A stretch of DNA of 64,000 nt from a virus (lineage: Duplodnaviria > Caudoviricetes), in the IMG/VR virus record IMGVR_UViG_3300047539_000055. The stretch is one strand, 5' to 3'. Made by a program: the position numbers and the translations under genes. The notes below the pieces were generated by a model. The model was not told the origin of the DNA, searched no databases, and worked only from the letters and a program-made list of their open reading frames with translations. Position 1 is the first letter of the stretch. Every line of letters starts with the position of its first letter. Below, in pieces: positions 1 to 30,222 of this stretch.

Positions 1-88
1 GAAGAAACCAATACGTGGGGTGATTGCTGGTTTGGTGTTTGTAATGGTAGTGGTCAAAATTGGCTTGGTAAGATGTTGATACAGATTC

Positions 89-472
89 GTGAGGCGTTGC
101 GTGATTGATATCAAGACGGTTCAAAAATTAGAGGAAGAAGCCCTTGCTCTGCGTATTCTTAGAGAGCAAGAAAAACAAGAATCTGCTCTTAGAGCTTATG
201 AAGAGATGCGCAAGAACAATATAGTCTTGGTTGAAAAGGCAAAAAAGCTGGCTGAAAAAGCCCTTCCTAAAATGCTAACAAAGTTTGAAGAGGATGTAAA
301 ATATGCAATACGAAATGGAGTAAGAACTGTAACAATAAGATGTAATATTGCAGATGACGATCCGTTTATTGTAATGCAAGTACAAATATTAATAATGGGA
401 ATATTATCATTGGAAGGGTTTATATGTAAATATTCCGGTGATAATAAAAATGTATTAATTGTGGGTTGGTAA
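89..472 (+). CDS. hypothetical protein
   Basis: 127-aa ORF, coiled-coil-like N-half, abuts the next ORF. Confidence 0.55.
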   Translation: MRRCVIDIKTVQKLEEEALALRILREQEKQESALRAYEEMRKNNIVLVEKAKKLAEKALPKMLTKFEEDVKYAIRNGVRTVTIRCNIADDDPFIVMQVQILIMGILSLEGFICKYSGDNKNVLIVGW

Positions 473-473
473 A

Positions 474-701
474 ATGAGAGACGAATATGATTTTTCAAAA
501 GGTGTACGCGGTAAATATATCAACAAGATAAGTTCTTGGGTTTTAGAACCAGAAGTTTGTAGATTTTGTGGGAAGCTGACTTACACAAGTTTGGATGATG
601 CAGAGTATGCCGCCAAGCGATCCTCTCAAGGAAAGCAAACAATTAGTACTTATGCTTGCCCATACGAAACGGGCTGGCATTTAACATCAAAACAGAGATA
701 A
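474..701 (+). CDS. small Zn-binding-type phage protein
   Basis: CxxC plus YxCP..GWHLTS motif; ATG at 474 chosen just after the upstream stop. Confidence 0.55.
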   Translation: MRDEYDFSKGVRGKYINKISSWVLEPEVCRFCGKLTYTSLDDAEYAAKRSSQGKQTISTYACPYETGWHLTSKQR

Positions 702-1288
702 GAATTTATAAGTTGTTTTCTTTGTTGATTGTATAATTTTAATGATTTGGAAATTTTTAAGCGCGATACAGGAGATAAGGTTCTATTTTTATTTGAATTA
801 GCAACTTTTTTGCTAAAGCCAAGCGGTTTTGATTTACCTTTTAATCCTTTGGACATTTTTTGTTTAATTGTTTTTGTTTTTTCGACTCCATAAATTTCTT
901 CATATGTTTTACCTAAATTTCGTTTATGTGCTGGATGTATGGATTGTTTGTTTCGGGTTTCGGCGCTACGTTTAGCACCAGATATACCATCGCCGCCATT
1001 GGTCATATTACGAAGACATCCGATTCCAAGATCAATGCGACCATATAAATGAATAAGTAGTACTTCAATTTGTAATGCATTGGCTTCAGTAATATTTTGA
1101 GACACAAATTGAATATTGTTTTTATCATTTGGTTTAATACGATGTTGGGTACAAAAGGCACGATTGCCGATACCTTTTCCAATATAATATGGGGTTCCAA
1201 TAGCACCATATTTTGATTTACGAGAACGTAAATATTGGTAAACATAAAAATTTTTGTTTTGAAAAAGATTTGTGGAATAAATAGTCAT
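650..1288 (-). CDS. free-standing GIY-YIG-like homing endonuclease with NUMOD3-like tail
   Basis: FYVYQYLR...PYYIGKG..RA, LRNMTNGGDG, basic helical C-terminus; start MTIYS at 1288 follows a GGAGG RBS. Confidence 0.8.
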   Translation of the reverse strand: MTIYSTNLFQNKNFYVYQYLRSRKSKYGAIGTPYYIGKGIGNRAFCTQHRIKPNDKNNIQFVSQNITEANALQIEVLLIHLYGRIDLGIGCLRNMTNGGDGISGAKRSAETRNKQSIHPAHKRNLGKTYEEIYGVEKTKTIKQKMSKGLKGKSKPLGFSKKVANSNKNRTLSPVSRLKISKSLKLYNQQRKQLINSYLCFDVKCQPVSYGQA

Positions 1289-1355
1289 ATGCTGTTGTCC
1301 TCCAAGGCGATAGGGCAGTTGGGTCATGACACCGCGAACTGCATAAGTATTTAGC
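1276..1355 (+). ncRNA. candidate two-hairpin antisense RNA element, copy 1
   Basis: AATAAATA(1276) - CUGUUGUC/GGCGAUAG stem with loop CUCCAA - GCAGUU/AACUGC stem with inner GGU/ACC - opposite-strand TAAATA; homologous to 25552 and 29754. Confidence 0.7.
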
Positions 1356-1373
1356 AAAAAGAAAGGGAATAAT

Positions 1374-1955
1374 ATGAGTAATTTATGTCAAAGACCGGTT
1401 TTAATGTTGAGTAGTTCATTCGAACCACTAACAATTTGCAGTGTCAAGAGAGCGATGAAGTTGATCGTCAAGGGAGTTGCTCGTGCAGAGGAAACTCTTG
1501 ATCAGAAGTTTTACACTGGAAAGATGTGGGACGAATATACTGGCGAAATGATAACGGTTGACTTCATGTTGCCGAGTGTCATTAGGTTGCTGGAATATCG
1601 TTACATTCCAATTCGTACCCCAATTGTTACGAGAAAGAATATTTTCAATCGTGACAAGCATATGTGTTTGTATTGTGGTCATCCATTTACAGCAAGTAAG
1701 TTGACTCTTGACCACGTAATTCCACGTTTCTGTGGAGGTAAGAGTACATGGGAAAATCTTGTTTCTTGCTGTATGCCTTGTAACAAAAAGAAGGGAAACA
1801 AGATGTTGCATGAATTGACGGATATGAAGCTGATGTATAAGCCGAGGCCGTTGAACAGCCACACTAGCCGATTCATTATGCGTGATCTTGGTGATGGTGA
1901 TCCATTGTGGAGGAAGTATCTCTACTTTGAGAACAACAATCTGCAAGAAGGCTAA
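1374..1955 (+). CDS. HNH endonuclease (McrA-like family)
   Basis: PSVIRL, RKNIFNRD, CxxC, LTLDHVIP...GG...WENLV.CC..CN..KG. Confidence 0.9.
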   Translation: MSNLCQRPVLMLSSSFEPLTICSVKRAMKLIVKGVARAEETLDQKFYTGKMWDEYTGEMITVDFMLPSVIRLLEYRYIPIRTPIVTRKNIFNRDKHMCLYCGHPFTASKLTLDHVIPRFCGGKSTWENLVSCCMPCNKKKGNKMLHELTDMKLMYKPRPLNSHTSRFIMRDLGDGDPLWRKYLYFENNNLQEG

Positions 1956-1976
1956 TAAACAATCAACATAGTACAG

Positions 1977-2007
1977 AAACAGCGAGTCTTTATGACTCGC
2001 TGTTTTT
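1977..2007 (+). terminator. rho-independent terminator
   Basis: aaacagcgagtc-tttat-gactcgctgttttt. Confidence 0.8.
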
Positions 2008-2017
2008 GTTTGGTATA

Positions 2018-2025
2018 GATAAATA
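2018..2025 (+). promoter_or_regulatory. T4-type late promoter (GATAAATA)
   Basis: TATAAATA-like octamer about 27 nt before the structural gene at 2052; similar sites at 7891, 11169, 30281, 34753, 58137, 58630, 58781, 62396. Confidence 0.65.
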
Positions 2026-2051
2026 CTACTACTTAGGATAGGTGTTTATCT

Positions 2052-3185
2052 ATGTCCAGTTCTATAAAAATTAGTCAACTTCCATTTGCTCCGTCTTTAT
2101 CAAATGTGGCTATTTTTCCGCTTGTTCAAAATTCAATAACAGAAAAAGCCACAATTGCACAGCTTGCCGGTTTTCTTAATGGACAGATTGGTGGTGCGCA
2201 AGGACCACAAGGAAACCAAGGTAATACTGGTGGACCGCAAGGTTTCCAAGGAAACCAAGGAAACCAAGGCAACCAAGGTACTGGAAATCAAGGAACTCAA
2301 GGAAATCAAGGAGCATCTGTCCACGGATCACAAGGTAATAATGGTGCGACAGGATTACAAGGAGTCCCTGGAACACAAGGAGTTCAAGGAGTTCAAGGAG
2401 GCCAAGGAAGCCAAGGAAATCAATCCAGCGTTCAAGGCAATCAAGGAAATCAAGGAAATCAAGGCATTCAAGGCGCTGGATTCCAAGGCACGCAGGGATC
2501 ACAAGGAAATCAAGGCAATCAAGGAACTTCTGTTCAAGGAACACAAGGTCCACAAGGTTCTGGATATCAAGGTTTTCAAGGAAATCAAGGAAATAACGGA
2601 ACGCAAGGCAATCAAGGTATTCAAGGCGCGGGATTCCAAGGCAATCAAGGAAACACTGGAACACAAGGAAATCAAGGCATTCAAGGCGCTGGATTTCAAG
2701 GCAACCAAGGCAATCAAGGAAATCAAGCAAGCAACGGAGCGCAAGGAAATCAAGGCATTCAAGGTGCTGGTTTCCAAGGAAGCCAAGGAAATCAAGGTGA
2801 CCAAGGTGGTGCTGGAACTCAAGGTAATACTGGCCCACAAGGAACTCAAGGATTACAAGGCAATCAAGGCAATCAGGGAATCCAAGGCACTCAAGGATTA
2901 CAAGGCACTCAAGGCACTCAAGGATTACAAGGAACTCAAGGCAATCAAGGCAATCAAGGAGTTGGACATATTATTGTATTGGCTAATGCTTCACCTTCAT
3001 CGCCTGGTCCATTTGTTGTAGGACACACTTTAGGCTCTGCTCCCGAAGCAGTTGCAATTACAATGATTACCGGCGGCCAGATTTGGCTAAATACTGCTAA
3101 TATTTCTATTGGGTATGATTCGGCCAATATTTATTGTGTTGCATCAGATGCTAATGTTGCAGCACGCATTTATGTATGGAGTTAA
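2052..3185 (+). CDS. collagen-like (Gly-X-Gln) fibre protein
   Basis: long G-x-Q triplet repeat; N-terminal IKISQLP motif typical of phage fibre proteins; late promoter. Confidence 0.8.
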   Translation: MSSSIKISQLPFAPSLSNVAIFPLVQNSITEKATIAQLAGFLNGQIGGAQGPQGNQGNTGGPQGFQGNQGNQGNQGTGNQGTQGNQGASVHGSQGNNGATGLQGVPGTQGVQGVQGGQGSQGNQSSVQGNQGNQGNQGIQGAGFQGTQGSQGNQGNQGTSVQGTQGPQGSGYQGFQGNQGNNGTQGNQGIQGAGFQGNQGNTGTQGNQGIQGAGFQGNQGNQGNQASNGAQGNQGIQGAGFQGSQGNQGDQGGAGTQGNTGPQGTQGLQGNQGNQGIQGTQGLQGTQGTQGLQGTQGNQGNQGVGHIIVLANASPSSPGPFVVGHTLGSAPEAVAITMITGGQIWLNTANISIGYDSANIYCVASDANVAARIYVWS

Positions 3186-3194
3186 GAGGAAAAG

Positions 3195-4391
3195 ATGAAG
3201 AAATTATTTGGTATTTTAGCTTTTGTAATTGCGATGCTCCCATTGATAGGCAGCGCTCAAGAAATCCAATTAGGACCAAATAATATTCAGGTCAAAGGAA
3301 CTCTTCAGCAAGCATATGGCGGAACAGGTTCAACTCAGCCAATTCCAACAAACTGTTTTGGTGCTACTAATGCTTTGTTTTGGGATCCGGTTGCTGTGAA
3401 GTTTGGATGTAATACAATTGCTGGTGGCGGTGGTGGTGTTACTCTTGTTGCTGCAACCAGTTCTTATATGTTTACAGTTGGTGTTGCAACTGCCAGCACA
3501 ACGCCAAGTATTACTTTCACTTTTGGAAATACAAATAATCAAGTTTATGTTGGAACTGGTACAGGAACAGGATATTGGACTACCATTCCAGAATGTAACG
3601 GCGGAAACAATGCTTTATCATTTGATAATACTTTGCAATCTTTTGGATGTAATACAATTACTGGCGGTGGTGGGGGCGGTGGAACTACAACTAACCCAGT
3701 AACATTTGCCGGTAGTGGTGGTGCATCGGCCGGTGCTTCATTCAATGGTTCTTCTGCTGTCACAATTGATTATCACACTGTCGGCGCTCCATCTGTTTCT
3801 GGTACTGGTGCAACAGGAACTTGGGGTATCAATATTTCTGGTATCGCCTCGCAAGTTGCTCAATCAGTAACTTTTGCCGCTTCTGGTGGTGCAGCCCCTT
3901 CGCAAGTATATAATGGATCATCAGCATTTACGGTTGATTATCATACTGTTGGCGCTCCATCAGCTACAGGAACAGGTGCATCAGGAACTTGGGCAATTAG
4001 CGTTACAGGAAATGCTGGTACTGCTTCTGCTTTAGCTTCTACACCAGGACTTTGCTCGTATGGACAATTTGCATATGGTATTCTTGCTAATGGCAGTGGT
4101 GTTTGCAGTCCTTCAAATGTAACTCTTACAATGCCTTCAGGAACACCCATTACTTATAATACTTGTACAACTCCACAAACACAATCATACATTGGTGTCA
4201 GATCAGCATCAACATTCACATCAGCTTTTGCTACAAACCCGACTGCTGTTAACGGTTGGGGAGCTAATGGCGGATTAGTACTTATGTTGTGGCCAGATAG
4301 TTCCAATGATAATCTTGATTGGTCTGTTTGTAATCAAGACAATATAAATATCACGCCGGGGGCGATGAATATCAATGTTGGAGTGAAGTAA
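3195..4391 (+). CDS. Gly/Thr-rich fibre- or adhesin-like protein with signal peptide
   Basis: Sec-type N-terminus, duplicated C-x17-C and DYHTVGAPS.TGTGA.GTW.I repeats. Confidence 0.65.
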   Translation: MKKLFGILAFVIAMLPLIGSAQEIQLGPNNIQVKGTLQQAYGGTGSTQPIPTNCFGATNALFWDPVAVKFGCNTIAGGGGGVTLVAATSSYMFTVGVATASTTPSITFTFGNTNNQVYVGTGTGTGYWTTIPECNGGNNALSFDNTLQSFGCNTITGGGGGGGTTTNPVTFAGSGGASAGASFNGSSAVTIDYHTVGAPSVSGTGATGTWGINISGIASQVAQSVTFAASGGAAPSQVYNGSSAFTVDYHTVGAPSATGTGASGTWAISVTGNAGTASALASTPGLCSYGQFAYGILANGSGVCSPSNVTLTMPSGTPITYNTCTTPQTQSYIGVRSASTFTSAFATNPTAVNGWGANGGLVLMLWPDSSNDNLDWSVCNQDNINITPGAMNINVGVK

Positions 4392-4879
4392 TGAAGCAGT
4401 TTCTAATAGCAATTGCATTATTATTTTGTTCAAGCATTGCATTTGGACAAGCCGGAACTGCGCCCGGTAGAGTAACTGGTAATCATGGTATACATGGAAC
4501 ATTCATTTTGTATGCAGGAATATCAGTTTCTTGTAATCAATCTTCTTCTCCATTATGTCCACAAACAAGTGGATCATTTACTGGCCCAAACCAAGTCGCG
4601 GCTGGTATTATGAATTTTTCTTCAACTCATGATGCGAGTGGTGGTAGTTCTGGCACAGGCGGTGGTTCTGGTACTCTTTATGTTACTTGTAATGGTGGTT
4701 CTCCGCTTGGAGTCGCAGAAGTGACATTGCCAAGTGGAGTACCTTCATATTCAACTCCAGCATGTTCAGGCGTAATAAATTTGAATCAAATACAATTTTA
4801 TGCTGTTATTGCTGGTGGTGGCGCACCTGGATATTCGGAAAATTTTAATTCTCCAACCCAAATTATTGTTACTTTCTAA
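4391..4879 (+). CDS. secreted Cys/Gly-rich protein
   Basis: signal peptide, translationally coupled to the previous gene. Confidence 0.6.
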   Translation: MKQFLIAIALLFCSSIAFGQAGTAPGRVTGNHGIHGTFILYAGISVSCNQSSSPLCPQTSGSFTGPNQVAAGIMNFSSTHDASGGSSGTGGGSGTLYVTCNGGSPLGVAEVTLPSGVPSYSTPACSGVINLNQIQFYAVIAGGGAPGYSENFNSPTQIIVTF

Positions 4880-4937
4880 GTCCTTTAGAATCAACATAAT
4901 TATTTTCCTTGACATTTCCAAAAATTTAGTGTAGTAT
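4878..4937 (+). promoter_or_regulatory. early sigma70-type promoter with upstream IHF-like site
   Basis: aagtcctttagaatcaacataat, then TTGACA(4909)-17-TAGTAT. Confidence 0.55.
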
Positions 4938-5045
4938 TGATCGTAAGCAGATGTTTTATTTGTAGTTATTTGAGCCTGAATTTAATTTAGGCTCTTTTCT
5001 TGACATTTTCGCCCCAATAAGGTATAATAATTTTGTGAGGTTTAT

Positions 5046-5234
5046 ATGAAGCAACCGTCGAACCCAGATTTTGCTCAGGCCGCACTTGAGGCTCTTACAA
5101 AGGCTCGTAAATTGCACGATGTTTCGCGTATTACAGAAGCCGTCAATCGTGCTTCGCTTTTGCTTGCTCTCACCCCACAAGAAGCTGAAAAAGAAATGCG
5201 TCAAAAATTTGAACAAGAAAAGAGTAATTTGTGA
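5046..5234 (+). CDS. hypothetical protein
   Basis: GAGG RBS, downstream of a TTGACA..TATAAT promoter at about 5000. Confidence 0.55.
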   Translation: MKQPSNPDFAQAALEALTKARKLHDVSRITEAVNRASLLLALTPQEAEKEMRQKFEQEKSNL

Positions 5235-6307
5235 AGACATATACATCCGACGAATTTGATAAATTGAAGCGCGTAACTTATGAAGACTTGAAAGCAAATA
5301 AGTCAATTGTTACCAAAGATGCAGAAGTAAATTGGTATGTTTTATATGGCACACCAGATGGAAAGTATCTTACAGCAAATTTGTGGTATGCTGATAGCTG
5401 TCAGAAAACCATAAATTTTTCAATAAGAAAGCTTGATCAATTTGTGCGCCTTGTTCCAGAAACTCCAAAGACACCAGAACGAAAAGAACGATGGTTCGAT
5501 GTTTTTGAAGATGGTCCATATTTTGGAAGCGGTGGTTTTTCAACTAAAGGGATGGCCGTCAAATATAGTAAATATGGCTTACTACTTAAAGTTGAAGTTG
5601 AAAAGCAACCTGATGGAACTTGGATTGTTGTGACTGATACCAAAGCTGAAACCGAGATAAATTATCTTGCCGAGATAAACGGATCAATATCGTCAACGTT
5701 TCCAGAACAATTTGGAAAGATTACGGTGACACATTATGATAAAGCTTTAGATGATCCTAATAGTTATCAATGGGTTCGTGCTAATGATTATCCGCAAAAG
5801 ACACTTACACTTACTGAAGCATTTGATAAAGCATCGCGAGTGCCACACAATCCTACAGATTGGAAAAAATCATTAAATGACAGCGGTTGGTATCGCGATG
5901 ATAATAGTTATCAATGGGAGCGTAAAGTTCAACCCCATTCTTTTTATGATATTGATAATGATTATGCGCATGGTTTGATTACCTATGATGAATGGATGCT
6001 GATGGGACACGCAGATTTCCAAGTAAACCCTACAAAAGAACCAACACGAAAGATGAGTTGGGTTAATGTATACAGAGACGGGCCAATTGTAATAGATGGT
6101 GGTTATGCCACACAAGAAGAAGCAAACGAAATTGATTCAAAAGGTAGTCGTCTTGCCGTAGGGCAAGCCTATGTAGAACTCGAACAAAAACCCAATGGCC
6201 TCTGGAAATTTTCTGAGAAAAAAGAAGGTTCGGTAAAACAAGTGGATGATGAAGGTTGGTCTTGGGGTTTCAAAGGAAGAAGGAAATCTCCTTCTGGAGT
6301 GAAATAA
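5231..6307 (+). CDS. hypothetical protein with internal duplication
   Basis: 358 aa; two W..V..DGP....GG..T...E.E..P.G.W units. Confidence 0.6.
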   Translation: MKTYTSDEFDKLKRVTYEDLKANKSIVTKDAEVNWYVLYGTPDGKYLTANLWYADSCQKTINFSIRKLDQFVRLVPETPKTPERKERWFDVFEDGPYFGSGGFSTKGMAVKYSKYGLLLKVEVEKQPDGTWIVVTDTKAETEINYLAEINGSISSTFPEQFGKITVTHYDKALDDPNSYQWVRANDYPQKTLTLTEAFDKASRVPHNPTDWKKSLNDSGWYRDDNSYQWERKVQPHSFYDIDNDYAHGLITYDEWMLMGHADFQVNPTKEPTRKMSWVNVYRDGPIVIDGGYATQEEANEIDSKGSRLAVGQAYVELEQKPNGLWKFSEKKEGSVKQVDDEGWSWGFKGRRKSPSGVK

Positions 6308-8181: not shown

Positions 8182-8275
8182 AGCCCTATAGTTTAACGGC
8201 AGAACAGCGGCCTTATAACCCGTATTAGCATTAGATAGATGCATTGTCTCAGTTCGAATCTGAGTGGGGCTACCA
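8182..8275 (+). tRNA. tRNA with UAU anticodon (nominally Ile) and long variable arm
   Basis: acceptor AGCCCTA/TGGGGCT-A-CCA, loop CT-TAT-AA, T-arm ctcag-TTCGAAT-ctgag, ~24 nt variable arm. Confidence 0.85.
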
Positions 8276-8293
8276 AAAATAAGAAAGGTTGTT

Positions 8294-8506
8294 ATGAAGG
8301 GTTATTTAACAATATTATTTGCTATTGGAGCAGTCATTAATAGTTTTGTACTGGCGTGGCTTAGTTCAATGCATAATGTGTGGTTTGCTACTTGGTGGTA
8401 TAATACAGCATTAGGTTGGGTGGGATTTTTAACATTTACTTGTGGAACTACTGCTATTATCCGATTTTTAATGTGGCTTGATCCTATGATGTGTGATGAT
8501 AAATAA
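8294..8506 (+). CDS. small membrane protein
   Basis: AAAGG RBS; two hydrophobic segments; lies between tRNAs. Confidence 0.55.
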   Translation: MKGYLTILFAIGAVINSFVLAWLSSMHNVWFATWWYNTALGWVGFLTFTCGTTAIIRFLMWLDPMMCDDK

Positions 8507-8514
8507 TTATATGT

Positions 8515-8589
8515 GGGCGTGTCGTCCAACGGATAGGACCACAATCTTCTAAATTGAAAATGCAGGTTCGATTCCTGCCATGCCTACCA
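8515..8589 (+). tRNA. tRNA-Arg(UCU)
   Basis: GGGCGTG/CATGCCT-A-CCA, loop CT-TCT-AA, gcagg-TTCGATT-cctgc. Confidence 0.9.
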
Positions 8590-8603
8590 AATTAGCTCCA
8601 TTA

Positions 8604-8678
8604 GCTCCATTAGTTCAACGGATAGAACACTGGTCTTCGGAACCAGCTATGAGGGTTCAAATCCTTCATGGAGTACCA
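8604..8678 (+). tRNA. tRNA-Arg(UCG)
   Basis: GCTCCAT/ATGGAGT-A-CCA, ctggt-CT-TCG-GA-accag, gaggg-TTCAAAT-ccttc. Confidence 0.92.
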
Positions 8679-22699: not shown

Positions 22700-23036
22700 T
22701 TAACAGTCGAAAGACTGAAACGCTCGTGAAAGGAGACAACCTCTATATATATTCGGACGTGACTAGCATTATGTCACCGGATCCACCAAATTTTTGATTT
22801 ATGTTTAGACACGAATTGTCTATACGGGTCCGACAAGATTCGACGGGTATATAAACGGGAAGTTACGAGCCAGGTTGTGGTACTCGCCCCTGTAAAAAGG
22901 AGAGAACTATTTATAATCGCTAACTCTGTTAACGATGGCACGGAAGTTTACACACACAGTGTAAAAATCCGTGTGCCAGTAATGGCGTAAGCCAGTACTC
23001 CGCAGCGTGGCCCCGACTGTGTAAAAGAAACGGGGC
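22700..23036 (+). ncRNA. ssrA: circularly permuted (two-piece) tmRNA
   Basis: 3' acceptor CGGATCC-A-CCA ends at 22788, upstream of 5' end GGGTCCGACAAGATTCGACGGG at 22826; G3:U70 pair; tag frame 22919-22990 ANSVNDGTEVYTHSVKIRVPVMA*; outer ends approximate. Confidence 0.85.
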
Positions 23037-24763: not shown

Positions 24764-25564
24764 TCAATAGCAATGATTTGAGAGGCGGCAAAATTCCGAA
24801 GTGGCATAAGGGAAATCTTCGGCTACAGATAATTTTGATTTGCAACGTTTCAAATGAAGAGTCATATTTTTATGAAAACACTCTTTTTGACAATATTTAC
24901 ATTTTTCGCGGGAGCGAGGACTTTGAACCATACCTAATTGTCTTTTTCTTTCCCAAGTATCTTTTTTCTTTTTAATGGCTTGCGCAGAAGCACAATTATT
25001 CATTGTACCGTTTTTCTTCTTAGTGGCTAAAATTTTAGCAATAATATTTGTATTATTTTCAGTTGTTCCATTTGCTCTTTTAGTTGCTAAAATTTTTTGA
25101 ACTACTAATGGAGTAAGAACATTTAGTGTACCATTTAATTTCTTTGTAGTAAGTTGTTTCGCTATAATTAATGGAGAATCATTGTTCGTGCCGTTTTTCT
25201 TTTTAGTTTCTTTACATTTCTTGATTTCTTCTTGAGTTATGGAACGACCACTATTGCCATCACCGCCCACAGTTCTATTTCTCAAACATCCAGTCCCCAA
25301 ATCAATACGACCAAATAATTGAATTAAATTTATTTCCAAGTCAAAGGAAACCAATTCTTTCATATGTTCGTATACAAATTGAATGCGATTCCGATCTTTT
25401 GGAACGGAAATTCCTTTTTGGTGTTTAGCAAATGCTCTATTGTCGAAACCTTTACCAATATAATATGGCGTCCCAGCTAATCCATTTATAGAGTCTTTTT
25501 CGCGCAGATACATATAGACATAGAATCTATTGTCTTGGTGAAATGTAATGGGATAAATATTCAT
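24764..25564 (-). CDS. free-standing GIY-YIG-like homing endonuclease with TKKxNGT repeats
   Basis: FYVYMYLR...PYYIGKG..RA, LRNRTVGGDG; four K..ATKK.NGT repeats; C-terminal C2HC-like finger. Confidence 0.8.
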   Translation of the reverse strand: MNIYPITFHQDNRFYVYMYLREKDSINGLAGTPYYIGKGFDNRAFAKHQKGISVPKDRNRIQFVYEHMKELVSFDLEINLIQLFGRIDLGTGCLRNRTVGGDGNSGRSITQEEIKKCKETKKKNGTNNDSPLIIAKQLTTKKLNGTLNVLTPLVVQKILATKRANGTTENNTNIIAKILATKKKNGTMNNCASAQAIKKKKDTWERKRQLGMVQSPRSREKCKYCQKECFHKNMTLHLKRCKSKLSVAEDFPYATSEFCRLSNHCY

Positions 25565-25633
25565 AGCTGATCGCCTCCATTGGCATTAGAGCGATTGGGA
25601 ATTAGAGTTCCGTGAATCGCATTAGTATTTATC
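25552..25633 (+). ncRNA. candidate two-hairpin antisense RNA element, copy 2
   Basis: GATAAATA - CUGAU.GCC/GGC.AUUAG stem with loop UCCAUU - GCGAUU/AAUCGC stem with inner GGAA/UUCC - TATTTATC. Confidence 0.7.
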
Positions 25634-25793
25634 CCAAATAGGGAACTCCACGGCTGTAGATTACAAAAGTGGAAGAATAATATTACTATGGTAAATTACT
25701 ATGGTAATGTTGTTTTTCTACTTTTTGTATGTTACACTCTGTTTATGGCAACATCGTTGCCGAACTAAATTTACAAGAAAAGGAAAACAATTT

Positions 25794-26969
25794 ATGAATT
25801 TCTCATTGAAAACTGCGGTGTTTTTTCTTGCCGCTTTTGTATTAACTTGTCCTACTTCTGCATTTGCTTGGCCTACTTGCTCTGGTAATTGGGTTCAGGT
25901 TCCTACAGGAACTACGGGTACAGGTGCTTCTGGTACTGGTTATGGTGCCGTTGAAGTTGAAAGCGGTCAAACATGGCAATGTACCGCCATAACTACTCCA
26001 ACAACGGGTGGCGGTACAAATAACAATACTTCTACTTCTACTTCAAGTGCAAACGGCGGCAATTCTTCTTCCAGTGCTAATGGTGGAAATTCATCTGCAA
26101 CTGGTGGAACAGCCAATGGCGGTGCTGGTGGTAAGGGTGGTGCTGGTGGTTCAGCGACAGGTGGTACGGGCACTGGTGGTTCAGCTACAGGTGGAACAGC
26201 CAATGGTACAAACACGCTCAACGGCGGTGCAACAACATCTTCGGCCAATGGAACAAACACCCTCAATGCTGGTTCAACAACAGCTACCGGTGGAACGGCC
26301 AATGGTGGAACAACTACATCCAGTGGTGGTAATTCTAAAAATGCTAACAAGAATACCAACACTGCCGCTGGTGGTACAGGTGGTACTGGCGGAACTTCAA
26401 CAGTAACTTCTGCAAATACAAACGCTAACACAGCGAATGGTGGTGCAGGTGGTACTGCAAACCAAAGCCAACAACAGTCAAACAATAGTACTGGCAATAG
26501 CACATCATTGAATTCAACTTATAATGAAGTTCGTCAAACTCCGTTGGCATATGCACCAGATGCTATTCCAACTGCTCCATGTATCAAGAGTTATGGTGCG
26601 GGTGCTTCTGGCCCAATGTTTGGTGCTTCATTCGGCGGCGGTAAGATTGATAAAGGTTGCGATGCTCGTGAAACTGCGCGTTCATTTGCTCTCTTGCATA
26701 ATTTTACAGCAGCGGCAAAAATTCTTTGTCAGACAGATGCGGCAAAACGCGCTGGCTTAACTTTGGATGATTGCTTGGCAATTATCACTCCAGTAGTTCC
26801 AGTGACTATTAGAGAAGTTCCAGCAGTGACACCAACTCCGGTGGCATCAGTAACACCAGTAACAGTAGAAACTCCTGCTCCTACTCCTGCTCCGCAGATT
26901 GTAGACGCACCAGTAACTCCTGTGACTCCTGTGAAGTCTGTCTATCCAGAAAAAAAGATTAGTCAATAA
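25794..26969 (+). CDS. secreted Gly/Thr/Asn-rich low-complexity protein
   Basis: AAGGA RBS before ATG 25794, signal peptide, GGTANGG repeats, Cys-containing C-domain, Pro/Thr tail. Confidence 0.7.
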   Translation: MNFSLKTAVFFLAAFVLTCPTSAFAWPTCSGNWVQVPTGTTGTGASGTGYGAVEVESGQTWQCTAITTPTTGGGTNNNTSTSTSSANGGNSSSSANGGNSSATGGTANGGAGGKGGAGGSATGGTGTGGSATGGTANGTNTLNGGATTSSANGTNTLNAGSTTATGGTANGGTTTSSGGNSKNANKNTNTAAGGTGGTGGTSTVTSANTNANTANGGAGGTANQSQQQSNNSTGNSTSLNSTYNEVRQTPLAYAPDAIPTAPCIKSYGAGASGPMFGASFGGGKIDKGCDARETARSFALLHNFTAAAKILCQTDAAKRAGLTLDDCLAIITPVVPVTIREVPAVTPTPVASVTPVTVETPAPTPAPQIVDAPVTPVTPVKSVYPEKKISQ

Positions 26970-27946: not shown

Positions 27947-29059
27947 ATGGCTACAGTAACCATTATCAAGGGTTTTGGACGTGGTGGAAAGCTGATCAAG
28001 AATCAGACTTTTACCTTGCTCAAGGGTTTTGCTGTTGGCGGTAGGAGCGGTAAGGGGTTTATTACCGTTGATGGCACAAAGTTGTATGGATGCCCTTCCG
28101 CTCGTATCAAGGTCAAGTCCGAAAAGGATTTTGTCATCAATGGCGAATTGCCTGTAGGTAAGTCAAAGCCTCTTTCTGCCCGTCGCATTGCGGCTGACGC
28201 AAAGAAGGGTGAAGCAGTTTCCATGCTGGAAGACTCTTCCATTCCTGATGTTGAATCAAATGAAACAGATGAAGAAATTACCACACGAATCAGGAAGCGT
28301 TTTAGCACTCTGAATAAGTTGACAATGGGTGTTAGACGCGGTGATATTACATCTCTTTTTGTTACTGGTGCGCCAGGTGTTGGAAAAACTTATGGCGTCG
28401 AAGCAACTTTGAATGAGGCTGGTTTTCTTGCTGCTCTTGAAGATAACCCAAAGCGTTATGAAGTTGTTTCTGGTGCAATGACTCCCATTGGCCTTTATAT
28501 GAAGTTGTTTGAATATTGTGGGCCAAATGATGTTCTTGTGCTGGACGATTGCGATATGGTTTTCGCTGATGAAACTGCACTCAACATTCTCAAGGCTGCA
28601 TTGGACACTTCTAAGGTTCGCAAGATTTATTGGAATGTGGCTTCCAATGTTTTGAACAAGGCAGACGTTCCAAATTATTTTGTATTTGAAGGTTGTGTAA
28701 TCTTCATTTCAAATATCAACTTTCGCAAGGTTCGCAGTGAGCGTCTTCGTGGTCATTTGTCTGCTTTGATGTCTCGTTCACACTTCCTTGATTTGACTGT
28801 CCATACCTTCCGTGAGAAAATGCTTCGCATTGAAGATTTGGTTACGAATCACGATATGCTTGATCAGTTTGGTTTGAAGAAGTCCACTTGTAATGCGATG
28901 ATGGGATTTCTTCGCGAGAATGCCAAGGAGTTCAATGAACTTTCTTTGCGCTCTGTTATCAAGTTGGCTGGTCTTGCTAAGACTTGCGATGAAATCACAG
29001 AAGAATGGGAAGAAATCGCTCGTGAATCGTTGATGGGTAATCCACTGTCTTACGAATAA
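27947..29059 (+). CDS. AAA+/P-loop ATPase
   Basis: GAPGVGKT Walker A, VLVLDDCD Walker B, IFISN; AAGGAG RBS; promoter at 27871. Confidence 0.85.
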   Translation: MATVTIIKGFGRGGKLIKNQTFTLLKGFAVGGRSGKGFITVDGTKLYGCPSARIKVKSEKDFVINGELPVGKSKPLSARRIAADAKKGEAVSMLEDSSIPDVESNETDEEITTRIRKRFSTLNKLTMGVRRGDITSLFVTGAPGVGKTYGVEATLNEAGFLAALEDNPKRYEVVSGAMTPIGLYMKLFEYCGPNDVLVLDDCDMVFADETALNILKAALDTSKVRKIYWNVASNVLNKADVPNYFVFEGCVIFISNINFRKVRSERLRGHLSALMSRSHFLDLTVHTFREKMLRIEDLVTNHDMLDQFGLKKSTCNAMMGFLRENAKEFNELSLRSVIKLAGLAKTCDEITEEWEEIARESLMGNPLSYE

Positions 29060-29070
29060 TCTAAACACTT

Positions 29071-29095
29071 GGGTCAGTCGAGAGACTGACCCTTT
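29071..29095 (+). terminator. rho-independent terminator overlapping the endonuclease stop
   Basis: gggtcagtc-gaga-gactgacccttt. Confidence 0.75.
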
Positions 29096-29766
29096 CTTTC
29101 CTTCAAAGTGTCTTTTTGCTTTTGAATAGATTCTAAAGTTCGTTTTCTACCTCTATTTGCATCACCAATTTTCTTTTTACATTCTGCCGATCTTTCACAC
29201 AGTCCATTTTTCTTTCTAGTAGCAATTACTTTTTCTATTACATCTTTTGTCATAACATTCATTGTTCCATTTTTGCGCTTTGTTTCTAGTTGCTTGGAAA
29301 TTGTATTTTCGGATACAATATCTTTTCCGTTTTTGCGTCTTGTTTTCCAAGCCTGTTTTCGATTTTCAGGGGTATTCGGATTTATAATTCCTTTTGCTTT
29401 TTTCGTAGCGACACCCTTTGCTAAAGATTCGGGTGTCTGAGATAATAGTAAGAAACTTTTATTTCCGTTTGATTTATTGAACCAATCATTTCGTTGTGCC
29501 GCCCCAATTTTACACAATATTTTAGTTTCTAAATTTCTTGTTTGTTCAACAGTTTTACAAATAAGACGAATTTCCCAAGCAAACCACGAAACGCCATATT
29601 TATCTACTAGTTCATTTATTTCTTTGCTTGAAGTGAAATATTTATTTCCCAGATCAGAAGGATGACAATTTTTAGCGTAACGCGAACCATAATATCTTTT
29701 TCCGGTTGATTTTTCTGTAACAAGATATGTGAATGGTGTGCGATCTATGGCAGAATAAATAGGCAT
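29074..29766 (-). CDS. free-standing Seg-like GIY-YIG homing endonuclease
   Basis: FTYLV...GKRYYGSR...YFTSS, E..IL, WFNKS; TKRKNG repeats plus NUMOD3-like end; start MPIYS at 29766 after GGAG. Confidence 0.78.
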   Translation of the reverse strand: MPIYSAIDRTPFTYLVTEKSTGKRYYGSRYAKNCHPSDLGNKYFTSSKEINELVDKYGVSWFAWEIRLICKTVEQTRNLETKILCKIGAAQRNDWFNKSNGNKSFLLLSQTPESLAKGVATKKAKGIINPNTPENRKQAWKTRRKNGKDIVSENTISKQLETKRKNGTMNVMTKDVIEKVIATRKKNGLCERSAECKKKIGDANRGRKRTLESIQKQKDTLKERKGQSLD

Positions 29767-29830
29767 GGCTGGTGCTCCATAAAGCATTAGAATTGGTGGG
29801 ACTCGTTATCCGCGACCAATAGTATTTATC
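29754..29830 (+). ncRNA. candidate two-hairpin antisense RNA element, copy 3
   Basis: AATAAATA - CUGGUGCU/AGCAUUAG stem with loop CCAUAA - AUUGGU/ACCAAU stem with inner GGA/UCC - TATTTATC. Confidence 0.7.
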
Positions 29831-29835
29831 AAAAA

Positions 29836-30222
29836 TTACGGCATTTTTTTCACAACTGTTATACTTCTTCGCTTTTTCTTTTGATTTAGTGCTGATAGAG
29901 AAACACATGGCCCATGCACGATTTGAAGTTCTTTAGAAATAAATGTCTTGAAAATTTTTTCAAAAACCTTCCATTCATCTTTCAAATAAATATTGATCGG
30001 CAGTTGTCGATTTGATTCGTAGTACCATTTTTCTCCGAGTGTCAAAAATAGCTTTTTCTCTTCATCAGTCTTCAAAAGACTAAAATCATAGACGCTGGTT
30101 ATAATGCTATCTGCATTTTGAATAATGCCTACATATTCATCCTGCGAATCTCCATAAGTTATAATACTTAAAAAAGGAAAAGATTGGTTTAGTTTCTCGT
30201 ATAAGTTGTTTGGCATGATCAC
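29836..30222 (-). CDS. conserved hypothetical phage protein
   Basis: FPFLS...YVGIIQN.D...WYYESNR.LPINIY; divergent late promoters at 30248-30288. Confidence 0.65.
   Translation of the reverse strand: MIMPNNLYEKLNQSFPFLSIITYGDSQDEYVGIIQNADSIITSVYDFSLLKTDEEKKLFLTLGEKWYYESNRQLPINIYLKDEWKVFEKIFKTFISKELQIVHGPCVSLSALNQKKKRRSITVVKKMP

Follow-up and report, generated by a model that had tools for sequence, protein, structure and literature searches.

RNA-OUT of IS10/Tn10 is an antisense stem-loop RNA of ~70 nt; its promoter faces that of the transposase transcript, and the 5′ ends of the two RNAs overlap over the transposase ribosome site and start codon. A second small RNA of this kind is sar of phage P22, which is 68–69 nt long, is antisense to the ribosome site of ant, and is included in a 2025 review of phage small RNAs (PMC12197685). 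For the homing endonuclease genes I-TevI, I-TevII, I-TevIII, segB, and mobE of Aeh1, an mRNA hairpin occludes the ribosome-binding site, and a late promoter is nested in it so that late transcripts escape (PMC2988022). Here, we describe a two-hairpin module that lies across the starts of three GIY-YIG-like nuclease genes in a 64-kb stretch (64,000 nucleotides, hereafter the window) of the virus record IMGVR_UViG_3300047539_000055 (Duplodnaviria; Caudoviricetes). Based on comparative analysis of its sequence, the module probably, on balance, specifies a cis-antisense RNA of ~60–70 nt that is made from one of two face-to-face late promoters and covers the ribosome site of the nuclease.

The three window copies were folded separately on each strand, alongside an alignment of the three. 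All have the same order on the + strand. ATAAATA, within codons 2–4 of the − strand gene, comes first; the start codon's complement, hairpin 1, a 1-nt spacer, hairpin 2, and the complement of (G/C)(A/T)TAAATA follow in turn. The loop of hairpin 1 contains CUCC or UCC, and the core of hairpin 2 reads UGGG...CCGYGA. The fold energies of copies 1, 2, and 3 are −18.4, −24.2, and −17.3 kcal/mol on the + strand and −13.6, −17.8, and −13.9 kcal/mol on the − strand. A covariance model (R1), built in the antisense orientation from 28 copies, matched the window exactly three times, at 1277–1354, 25553–25632, and 29755–29832. The scores of 64–72 bits (E ~1e-11 to 1e-13) are far beyond chance. The initial annotation had placed three copies at GIY-YIG-like gene starts, and R1 finds these three alone.

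A covariance-model search of phage genomes had been suggested together with that annotation. R1 gave 92 matches (57 distinct) in viral loci and 22 further distinct copies in metagenome contigs, and ~76 distinct copies were recovered overall, all from uncultured phage and metagenome contigs; a pattern scan contributed 45 additional contigs. In every case, an R1 copy occupies the 5′ end of a GIY-YIG nuclease gene. In IMG/VR contigs, the copy 3 protein has distant homologues whose identity to it does not exceed 54%, and the module lies upstream of most of them. The module is a family, not a local repeat, and is widespread in uncultured T4-like phages. Two variants of the leader can be distinguished. 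In the short-leader variant, the Shine–Dalgarno (SD) sequence is in hairpin 1 and is followed by YCAGC-ATG-nnT-ATT-TAT, which encodes M-x-I-Y. In the long-leader variant (e.g. L050:9596–9694, L066:1581–1679, and L057:4996–5091), the start codon is within the outer stem of hairpin 1, CTAAACAT...ATGTCCAGC, and the protein begins M-S-S-x-x-I-Y, with starts of the form M-S/T/F-S. An extra inner stem of this variant presents UCCU (anti-SD) in the apical loop and, as judged by eye, has an antisense-strand G·U pair in nearly every copy. The conserved YCAGC is non-coding in the short variant and coding in the long variant, which suggests that the constraint on it acts at the nucleotide level.

The element had not been recognised as a member of a named family, and the searches agree with this. 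At gathering thresholds, Rfam matched only tRNAs and a permuted transfer-messenger RNA (tmRNA) in the whole window and nothing at the module, and copy 2 with its flanks gave only two chance-level matches at E up to 10. Megablast of positions 1–6000 against cultured phages found no match, and blastn of the element against GenBank phages found chance matches only. The nearest nuclease homologues in cultured phages (Aeromonas PX29, Sinorhizobium phiN3, Ochrobactrum OC, Dickeya LIMEstone1, and Salmonella SP-9-14) have no adjoining module, and a search of viral contigs for relatives of the P0002 protein type returned none. A promoter-free scan on the hairpin cores yielded 112 stretches, almost all by chance, of which only that in L129 scored with R1. 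No description of the two-hairpin RNA was found in a literature search or in the 2025 review (PMC12197685).

The initial annotation had stated that the stems covary and that the two hairpins are exactly 1 nt apart. Both statements hold in the larger alignment: across 57 distinct rows, 98.8% of the cells are paired (75.9% after shuffling), both partners have changed in a compensatory way in 16 of 18 pairs, and the spacer is exactly 1 nt in every aligned copy. When the partner is slid by 1–3 columns, pairing falls to 28–52%. CUCC/UCCU is present in the hairpin 1 loop of nearly all copies, and the double-G-bulge core of hairpin 2 (UGGG/CCGCGA) is invariant, whereas its stems and loop vary. A closing stem between the two promoter boxes (ATAAATA/UAUUUAU), with which RNAfold forms a three-way junction, was rejected, since a transcript from the inner promoter would lack the box. 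Copies with ATATATA, ATAAGTA, or ATAATTA also show no compensating change opposite the box.

The strand on which the structure is kept was determined from its noncanonical pairs. The stems of the 54 complete copies, read in the antisense orientation, contain 864 Watson–Crick pairs, 96 G·U, one A·C, and 10 others. With the invariant G·U (the third pair of hairpin 1) left out, G·U still outnumbers A·C by 43:1, and the 22 further copies have 40 G·U and two A·C. The combined ratio is 136:3, which means that the same stem positions on the mRNA strand are 136 A·C and 3 G·U. A transition in a Watson–Crick pair produces G·U or A·C equally easily, and the asymmetry thus reflects selection that holds the fold on the antisense strand. 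An alignment-free comparison of minimum free energy (MFE) also favoured the antisense strand, in 50 of 54 copies and with a mean of −17.3 versus −13.0 kcal/mol. The conserved fold is on the strand antisense to the nuclease. From three copies, the G·U pairs had been proposed to work on the + strand only, and a G·U bias toward the mRNA strand in a larger alignment had been named as the observation that would speak against this; the bias runs in the opposite direction.

The inner ATAAATA box is conserved within the coding sequence. On the sense strand, the family reads [nnT][ATT][TAT] at this box. All 47 copies have T as the last base of the codon before Ile, whichever residue (N, T, S, I, P, V, D, or Y) that codon specifies. 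The Ile codon is ATT in 38 copies, ATA in seven, and ATC in none, against a background of 335, 328, and 114 in the same genes, and Tyr is encoded by TAT in 46 copies and TAC in one (background, 407 and 125). The embedded ATAAATA is under synonymous, nucleotide-level constraint. It is 6–9 nt from hairpin 1 in both leader variants, despite the shifted start codon. Homologues without the module start with M-x-x-PYTY and have no N-terminal x-I-Y, in line with the proposal that the embedded box explains the shared M-x-I-Y.

The late promoter of T4 is TATAAATA, located at about −13 to −6. The motif is cited as a late-promoter motif in PMC3014915. In the window, 15 of the 32 ATAAATA sites are in the 13.5% that is non-coding, nearly all just upstream of same-strand open reading frames (ORFs), which include those of a virion protein and a collagen-like protein. 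On this evidence, the view that ATAAATA is a real promoter type in the carrier phages is supported. The only complete carrier genome, IMGVR_UViG_3300005611_000002 (194,645 bp, with terminal repeats), has eight module copies, of which seven share one orientation, and encodes a gp55-type late sigma factor at 175940–176440 (phrog_234, E 3.5e-64 in a PHROG profile search). A second, partial carrier record also has a gp55-type sigma factor (phrog_234, E 6.3e-61). A tblastn search with T4 gp55 gave no match in the window, which is part of a genome, or in any carrier DNA searched, whereas the PHROG profile did detect the carriers' factors. Both the inner and outer boxes of the module are conserved; they stand face to face ~65 bp apart, and the predicted transcript overlap of ~56 nt coincides exactly with the two-hairpin block.

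Hairpin 2 has a mean energy of −9.7 kcal/mol and is followed by 2–5 nt and then by UAUUUAU(A), the complement of the outer promoter, so that ~6 of the first 10 bases past its stem are U. Ten copies have no adjacent outer promoter, and in four of them a run of 6–8 U stands directly past hairpin 2. These U6–U8 runs have the look of a terminator where the sequence is free to vary, and termination after hairpin 2 is plausible.

The module is linked to the nuclease rather than to the locus. In one homology cluster are 51 of the 53 downstream proteins, whereas the 27 proteins on the neighbour side fall into 24 clusters. Since the nuclease is constant and the neighbours are unrelated, the module travels with the nuclease, as had been supposed. 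The two catalytic-domain types that share the module are a SegE-type GIY-YIG domain, found in copy 3 and most others, and a second type, found in copies 1 and 2 and three others. All three window genes had been called GIY-YIG-like. This stands for copy 3, which matches PF19835 (SegE_GIY-YIG, E 2.3e-6, 28.3 bits versus a cut-off of 25), while the nucleases of copies 1 and 2, which are 40% identical, have no Pfam GIY-YIG match and are assigned by motifs and profile. Their type has the motifs YVY...YYIGKG...R...E...N, and its profile matches a GIY-YIG domain protein (Protein Data Bank ID: 9u75, E 7e-4). Comparison with the SegE-like group by hhalign was weak (E 5.9e-4, only 29% probability). The GIY-YIG nature of the second type is moderately supported by these sequence comparisons.

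Here, we propose a mechanism for the module based on these features. Each nuclease gene would carry a portable control module of ~75 bp with two T4-type, TATAAATA-like late promoters that face each other ~65 bp apart. The outer promoter would drive the nuclease mRNA, and the inner promoter in codons 2–4 would fire in the opposite direction. With T4 spacing, the antisense RNA is predicted to start 0–3 nt before hairpin 1, and the sense RNA at the foot of hairpin 2 or slightly within it. Because both transcripts would start at the feet of the two-hairpin block, they would be complementary across the ~56-nt 5′ leader, including the SD sequence and the start codon. The antisense RNA would fold into hairpin 1 with its anti-SD loop (CUCC/UCCU), the spacer base, and hairpin 2 with the double-G-bulge core, and the U-rich tract complementary to the outer promoter would probably end it at ~60–70 nt. 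The G·U pairs would stabilise the antisense RNA, and as the same positions are A·C mismatches in the mRNA, hairpin 1 of the mRNA would be weak and open to pairing. Pairing may begin loop to loop and then extend, and the duplex would block ribosome loading or invite RNase III, resulting in low nuclease output. Collision of the convergent polymerases may add to the effect. We infer the firing of the inner box, the end point of the RNA, and the translational repression from this arrangement. The initial annotation had read the element as an antisense RNA, and the predictions of this reading passed in silico: the G·U bias, the more stable strand by MFE, the constraint on the inner box, the linkage to the nuclease, and the lack of an Rfam family.

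Several observations weigh against the antisense reading. The pair counts rest on a model-fitted alignment of related sequences; the stems, however, contain no gaps and have invariant flanks as anchors, the MFE comparison agrees, and the proteins linked to the module are diverse (50 clusters at 60% identity). About 30% of the copies have a non-consensus inner box (ATATATA, ATAAGTA, or ATAATTA), which weakens the claim of a universal promoter: either such boxes make weak promoters or there is a separate need for the I-Y residues. Hairpin 2 is bulged, with a 2–5-nt gap to the U-rich tract in most copies, and a simple terminator scan of the window copies did not call it. The invariant double-G-bulge core would be unnecessary for simple antisense pairing. 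Finally, ~70% of the cassettes face a gene on the antisense-RNA strand (the 5′-side gene is divergent in 52 of 71 copies, against 19), and because the facing gene often starts only 10–45 nt past the module, the RNA may read on into it.

This layout is what would be expected if the inner box were an outward promoter with a structured 5′ leader that returns the neighbouring phage gene to late transcription, the hairpins stabilising or regulating the transcript and the complementarity to the nuclease being a by-product. Cassettes that are inverted relative to both neighbours outnumber co-directional ones by 23 to 8, whereas in T4 most seg and mob genes point the same way as the genes beside them. 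Copies 1 and 2 of the window face genes: copy 2 a + strand gene, and copy 1 an HNH gene 20 nt away. Embedded promoters that serve a neighbour are present in T4 segG, segA, segE, mobB, and mobC (PMC2988022). However, the 19 copies that no same-strand gene follows preserve the box and the strand-specific fold just as well. Among these, the inner box is perfect in 14 and the antisense strand is more stable in 17, compared with 35 and 51 of the 52 copies that have such a gene. Window copy 3 is one of the 19; it had been described as lacking a + strand gene downstream, and the gene past the element (29836–30222) is indeed on the − strand. In addition, the neighbours are unrelated and lie at variable distances, the hairpin and U-rich tract (U6–U8 where free) stand between the promoter and the neighbour, and a plain stabilising leader would not need an anti-SD loop or conserved bulges. 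We rank the outward promoter second, as an unlikely but serious explanation, because the box and the strand asymmetry hold without a facing gene and because the hairpin and U-tract intervene. A dual role, antisense and outward promoter, is possible.

The invariant core of hairpin 2 raises a different question. In HK022 put RNA, a single base separates two stem-loops that lie immediately downstream of a promoter, and the two hairpins of the module are likewise exactly 1 nt apart and begin at the predicted +1. Antisense pairing alone leaves unexplained why the bulge core never changes although the stems and loop do. There is a slender chance that hairpin 2 is a docking site for a protein or RNA polymerase in a portable riboregulator, acting either in the manner of put, by modifying the late transcription complex so that transcription passes from the inverted cassette into phage genes, or as an RNA antitoxin that binds and restrains the nuclease, with the antisense overlap being only part of the function. 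It is more doubtful that the RNA acts by such binding instead of base pairing, with hairpin 2 as the recognition module of a put-like RNA or of one that restrains the nuclease like a type III antitoxin. Nothing in Rfam matched the element even at E up to 10, the U-rich tail suits an ending and not an antiterminator, and the repeat array typical of type III antitoxins is missing.

A T4-type translational mask, in which the SD hairpin would fold in the nuclease mRNA as in I-TevI, segB, and Aeh1 mobE, has published precedents (PMC2988022 and PMC2677866). The SD sequence or AUG is always within the hairpin 1 region, and hairpin 2 is nearly as good on either strand. In the mRNA, however, as many as three of the eight hairpin 1 pairs are A·C mismatches, with 136 A·C versus 3 G·U overall, and in place of the stable SD hairpin expected of a mask, the sense fold is the weaker one in 50 of 54 copies. 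In 69 of 79 copies, the TATAAATA box is not nested but lies upstream of the two hairpins, 2–6 nt outside hairpin 2, so that late transcripts would not escape. A mask also presupposes read-through from an upstream early or middle unit, and the mostly inverted cassettes (23 versus 8) would provide no such transcript. A sense mask is highly improbable on these grounds. Equally little weight is given to the absence of any RNA function, by pure transcriptional interference of the facing promoters or by single-stranded DNA (ssDNA) hairpins in replication or recombination: the convergent boxes are ~65 bp apart and DNA hairpins tolerate G·T pairs too, but interference requires no conserved covarying structure between promoters, an RNA fits both the anti-SD loop and a structure that begins at the predicted +1, and no hairpin-reading ssDNA step is known in GIY-YIG homing.

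In the window, copy 1 belongs to the − strand nuclease gene 650–1288 (MTIYS..., GIY-YIG-like, P0002 type), whose product matches phrog_15526 and, weakly, phrog_314 "homing endonuclease." The embedded antisense box ATAAATA is at 1277–1283 (+) in codons 2–4, ACT ATT TAT, and is subject to the synonymous constraint seen across the family, as are the boxes of the other two copies. Given T4 late-promoter spacing, the antisense +1 is predicted at ~1289. Hairpin 1 (CUGUUGUC / GGCGAUAG, loop CUCCAA) occupies 1292–1313 (+) according to the fold and the alignment, and its loop is complementary to the nuclease SD sequence GGAGG at 1303–1299 on the − strand. Hairpin 2, GCAGUU-G-GGU...ACC-G-C-G-AACUGC with two bulged G, is at 1315–1342 (+), as indicated by fold and covariation. 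The sense late-promoter box CTAAATA at 1348–1354 (−) forms, when read on the + strand, the U-rich tail past hairpin 2. The HNH endonuclease gene beyond copy 1 (1374–1955, +; PF14279, E 1.5e-16) starts 20 nt past the module and is divergent from the nuclease. The GIY-YIG/HNH pairing recurs in another phage, where an HNH homologue is likewise placed beside the module (L036). Further along, a long protein with collagen-like G-N-Q/G-T-Q triplet repeats is encoded at 2052–3185 (+), with GATAAATAC ahead of the gene at 2019; it is probably a late structural or fibre gene.

Copy 2 precedes the − strand nuclease gene 24764–25564 (MNIYP..., P0002). Its embedded ATAAATA is at 25553–25559 (+), in codons AAT ATT TAT, and the antisense +1 is predicted at ~25565, 2 nt ahead of hairpin 1. 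Hairpin 1, CUGAU(C)GCC / GGCAUUAG with loop UCCAUU, occupies 25567–25589 (+), and the SD complement is at 25574–25578. Hairpin 2, GCGAUU-G-GGAA...UUCC-G-U-G-AAUCGC, is at 25591–25620 (+); it has a C-to-U variant, by which a G·U pair is retained on the + strand only. The sense late-promoter box GATAAATA is at 25626–25633 (−). An AT-rich inverted repeat of 20 pairs (25672–25718, +) lies between copy 2 and the + strand gene downstream. The true start of this gene may lie downstream of the annotated ORF start at 25701; near 25795, an ATG is followed by a signal-peptide-like start, MNFSLKTAVFF.

The third nuclease gene, 29074–29766 on the − strand (MPIYS..., P0003), encodes the SegE-type GIY-YIG protein that matches PF19835. 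The embedded ATAAATA is at 29755–29761 (+) in codons CCT ATT TAT, with the antisense +1 predicted at ~29767. Hairpin 1 (CUGGUGCU / AGCAUUAG, loop CCAUAA) is at 29769–29790 (+) and contains two G·U pairs, hairpin 2 (AUUGGU-G-GGA...UCC-G-C-G-ACCAAU) is at 29792–29820 (+), and the sense box GATAAATA is at 29823–29830 (−). A G+C-rich hairpin of nine pairs (six G-C) followed by a T-run was observed at 29071–29092, between the end of the + strand gene 27947–29059 and the 3′ end of the copy 3 nuclease. It is probably a bidirectional terminator that shields the copy 3 cassette from antisense read-through. Elsewhere in the window, the permuted tmRNA match (RF04321) at 22722–22990 (+) scored 48.6 bits versus a gathering score of 47 and is unusual in a phage contig, and three tRNA genes lie within 8182–8675.

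Homing endonucleases are selfish genes, and their restraint is understood mainly from a few mRNA-hairpin examples of T4. If the antisense reading is true, the module is a different solution: an antisense unit that is complete in itself and portable, moving along with the nuclease gene. It is found up to eight times per genome and across two GIY-YIG catalytic-domain types. Its dual coding is compact, with one promoter within codons 2–4 and the complement of the other probably serving as the terminator tail. The G·U/A·C asymmetry shows that one DNA segment can fold on one strand only, and with the covariance model, free-standing nuclease cassettes in metagenomes gain a new mark for annotation.

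The described systems resemble the module to different extents. As in the T4-type masks, a homing-endonuclease gene has TATAAATA directly upstream and its ribosome site in a hairpin region, but the module folds on the opposite strand (136:3) and has a conserved second, inward-facing promoter box. Because the module lacks the defining features of the mask family, the comparison with I-TevI is an analogy only. Conserved hairpins and TATAAATA before free-standing GIY-YIG and Vsr-like genes were reported from ocean metagenomes by Dassa et al. in 2009 and were read as sense masks (PMC2677866). These loci are also uncultured and phage-like, have a hairpin region and a late box in the 5′ untranslated region, and contain two conserved motifs that pair in a stem. 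In contrast to the module cassettes, their genes are co-oriented inside split host genes, and the study reported neither an antisense promoter nor a strand test or covariance model. By description, not by sequence, the Dassa leaders may be the same family as the module or a sister family. In the T4-like cyanophage S-PM2, the antisense RNA CfrI (~225 nt) links psbA to F-CphI (Millard et al. 2010; PMC12197685). It too overlaps a homing-endonuclease gene in a T4-like phage, but it is a single-locus feature, not a leader-covering two-hairpin module.

Closer parallels are found among antisense RNAs that cover a ribosome site. Like the predicted module RNA, sar is a small phage RNA whose promoter faces that of its target and which pairs over the target ribosome site; unlike the module, it is located in one temperate-phage immunity region, is not portable, multi-copy, or nuclease-linked, and is unrelated in sequence. 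The likeness to IS10 RNA-OUT extends to the predicted facing promoters in a mobile element, the proposed targeting of the element's own DNA-cutting enzyme, the target-complementary loop, and the presence of several copies per genome. The differences are the T4-type late promoters in lytic phages, the homing nuclease in place of a transposase, the inner promoter in codons 2–4, and the two hairpins with a conserved bulged second one; there is no sequence or model similarity, and the comparison is one of described features. The module has the conserved stable structure with a target-complementary loop that characterizes the RNA-OUT and sar type, and by analogy its logic is closest to IS10 RNA-OUT/RNA-IN and P22 sar.

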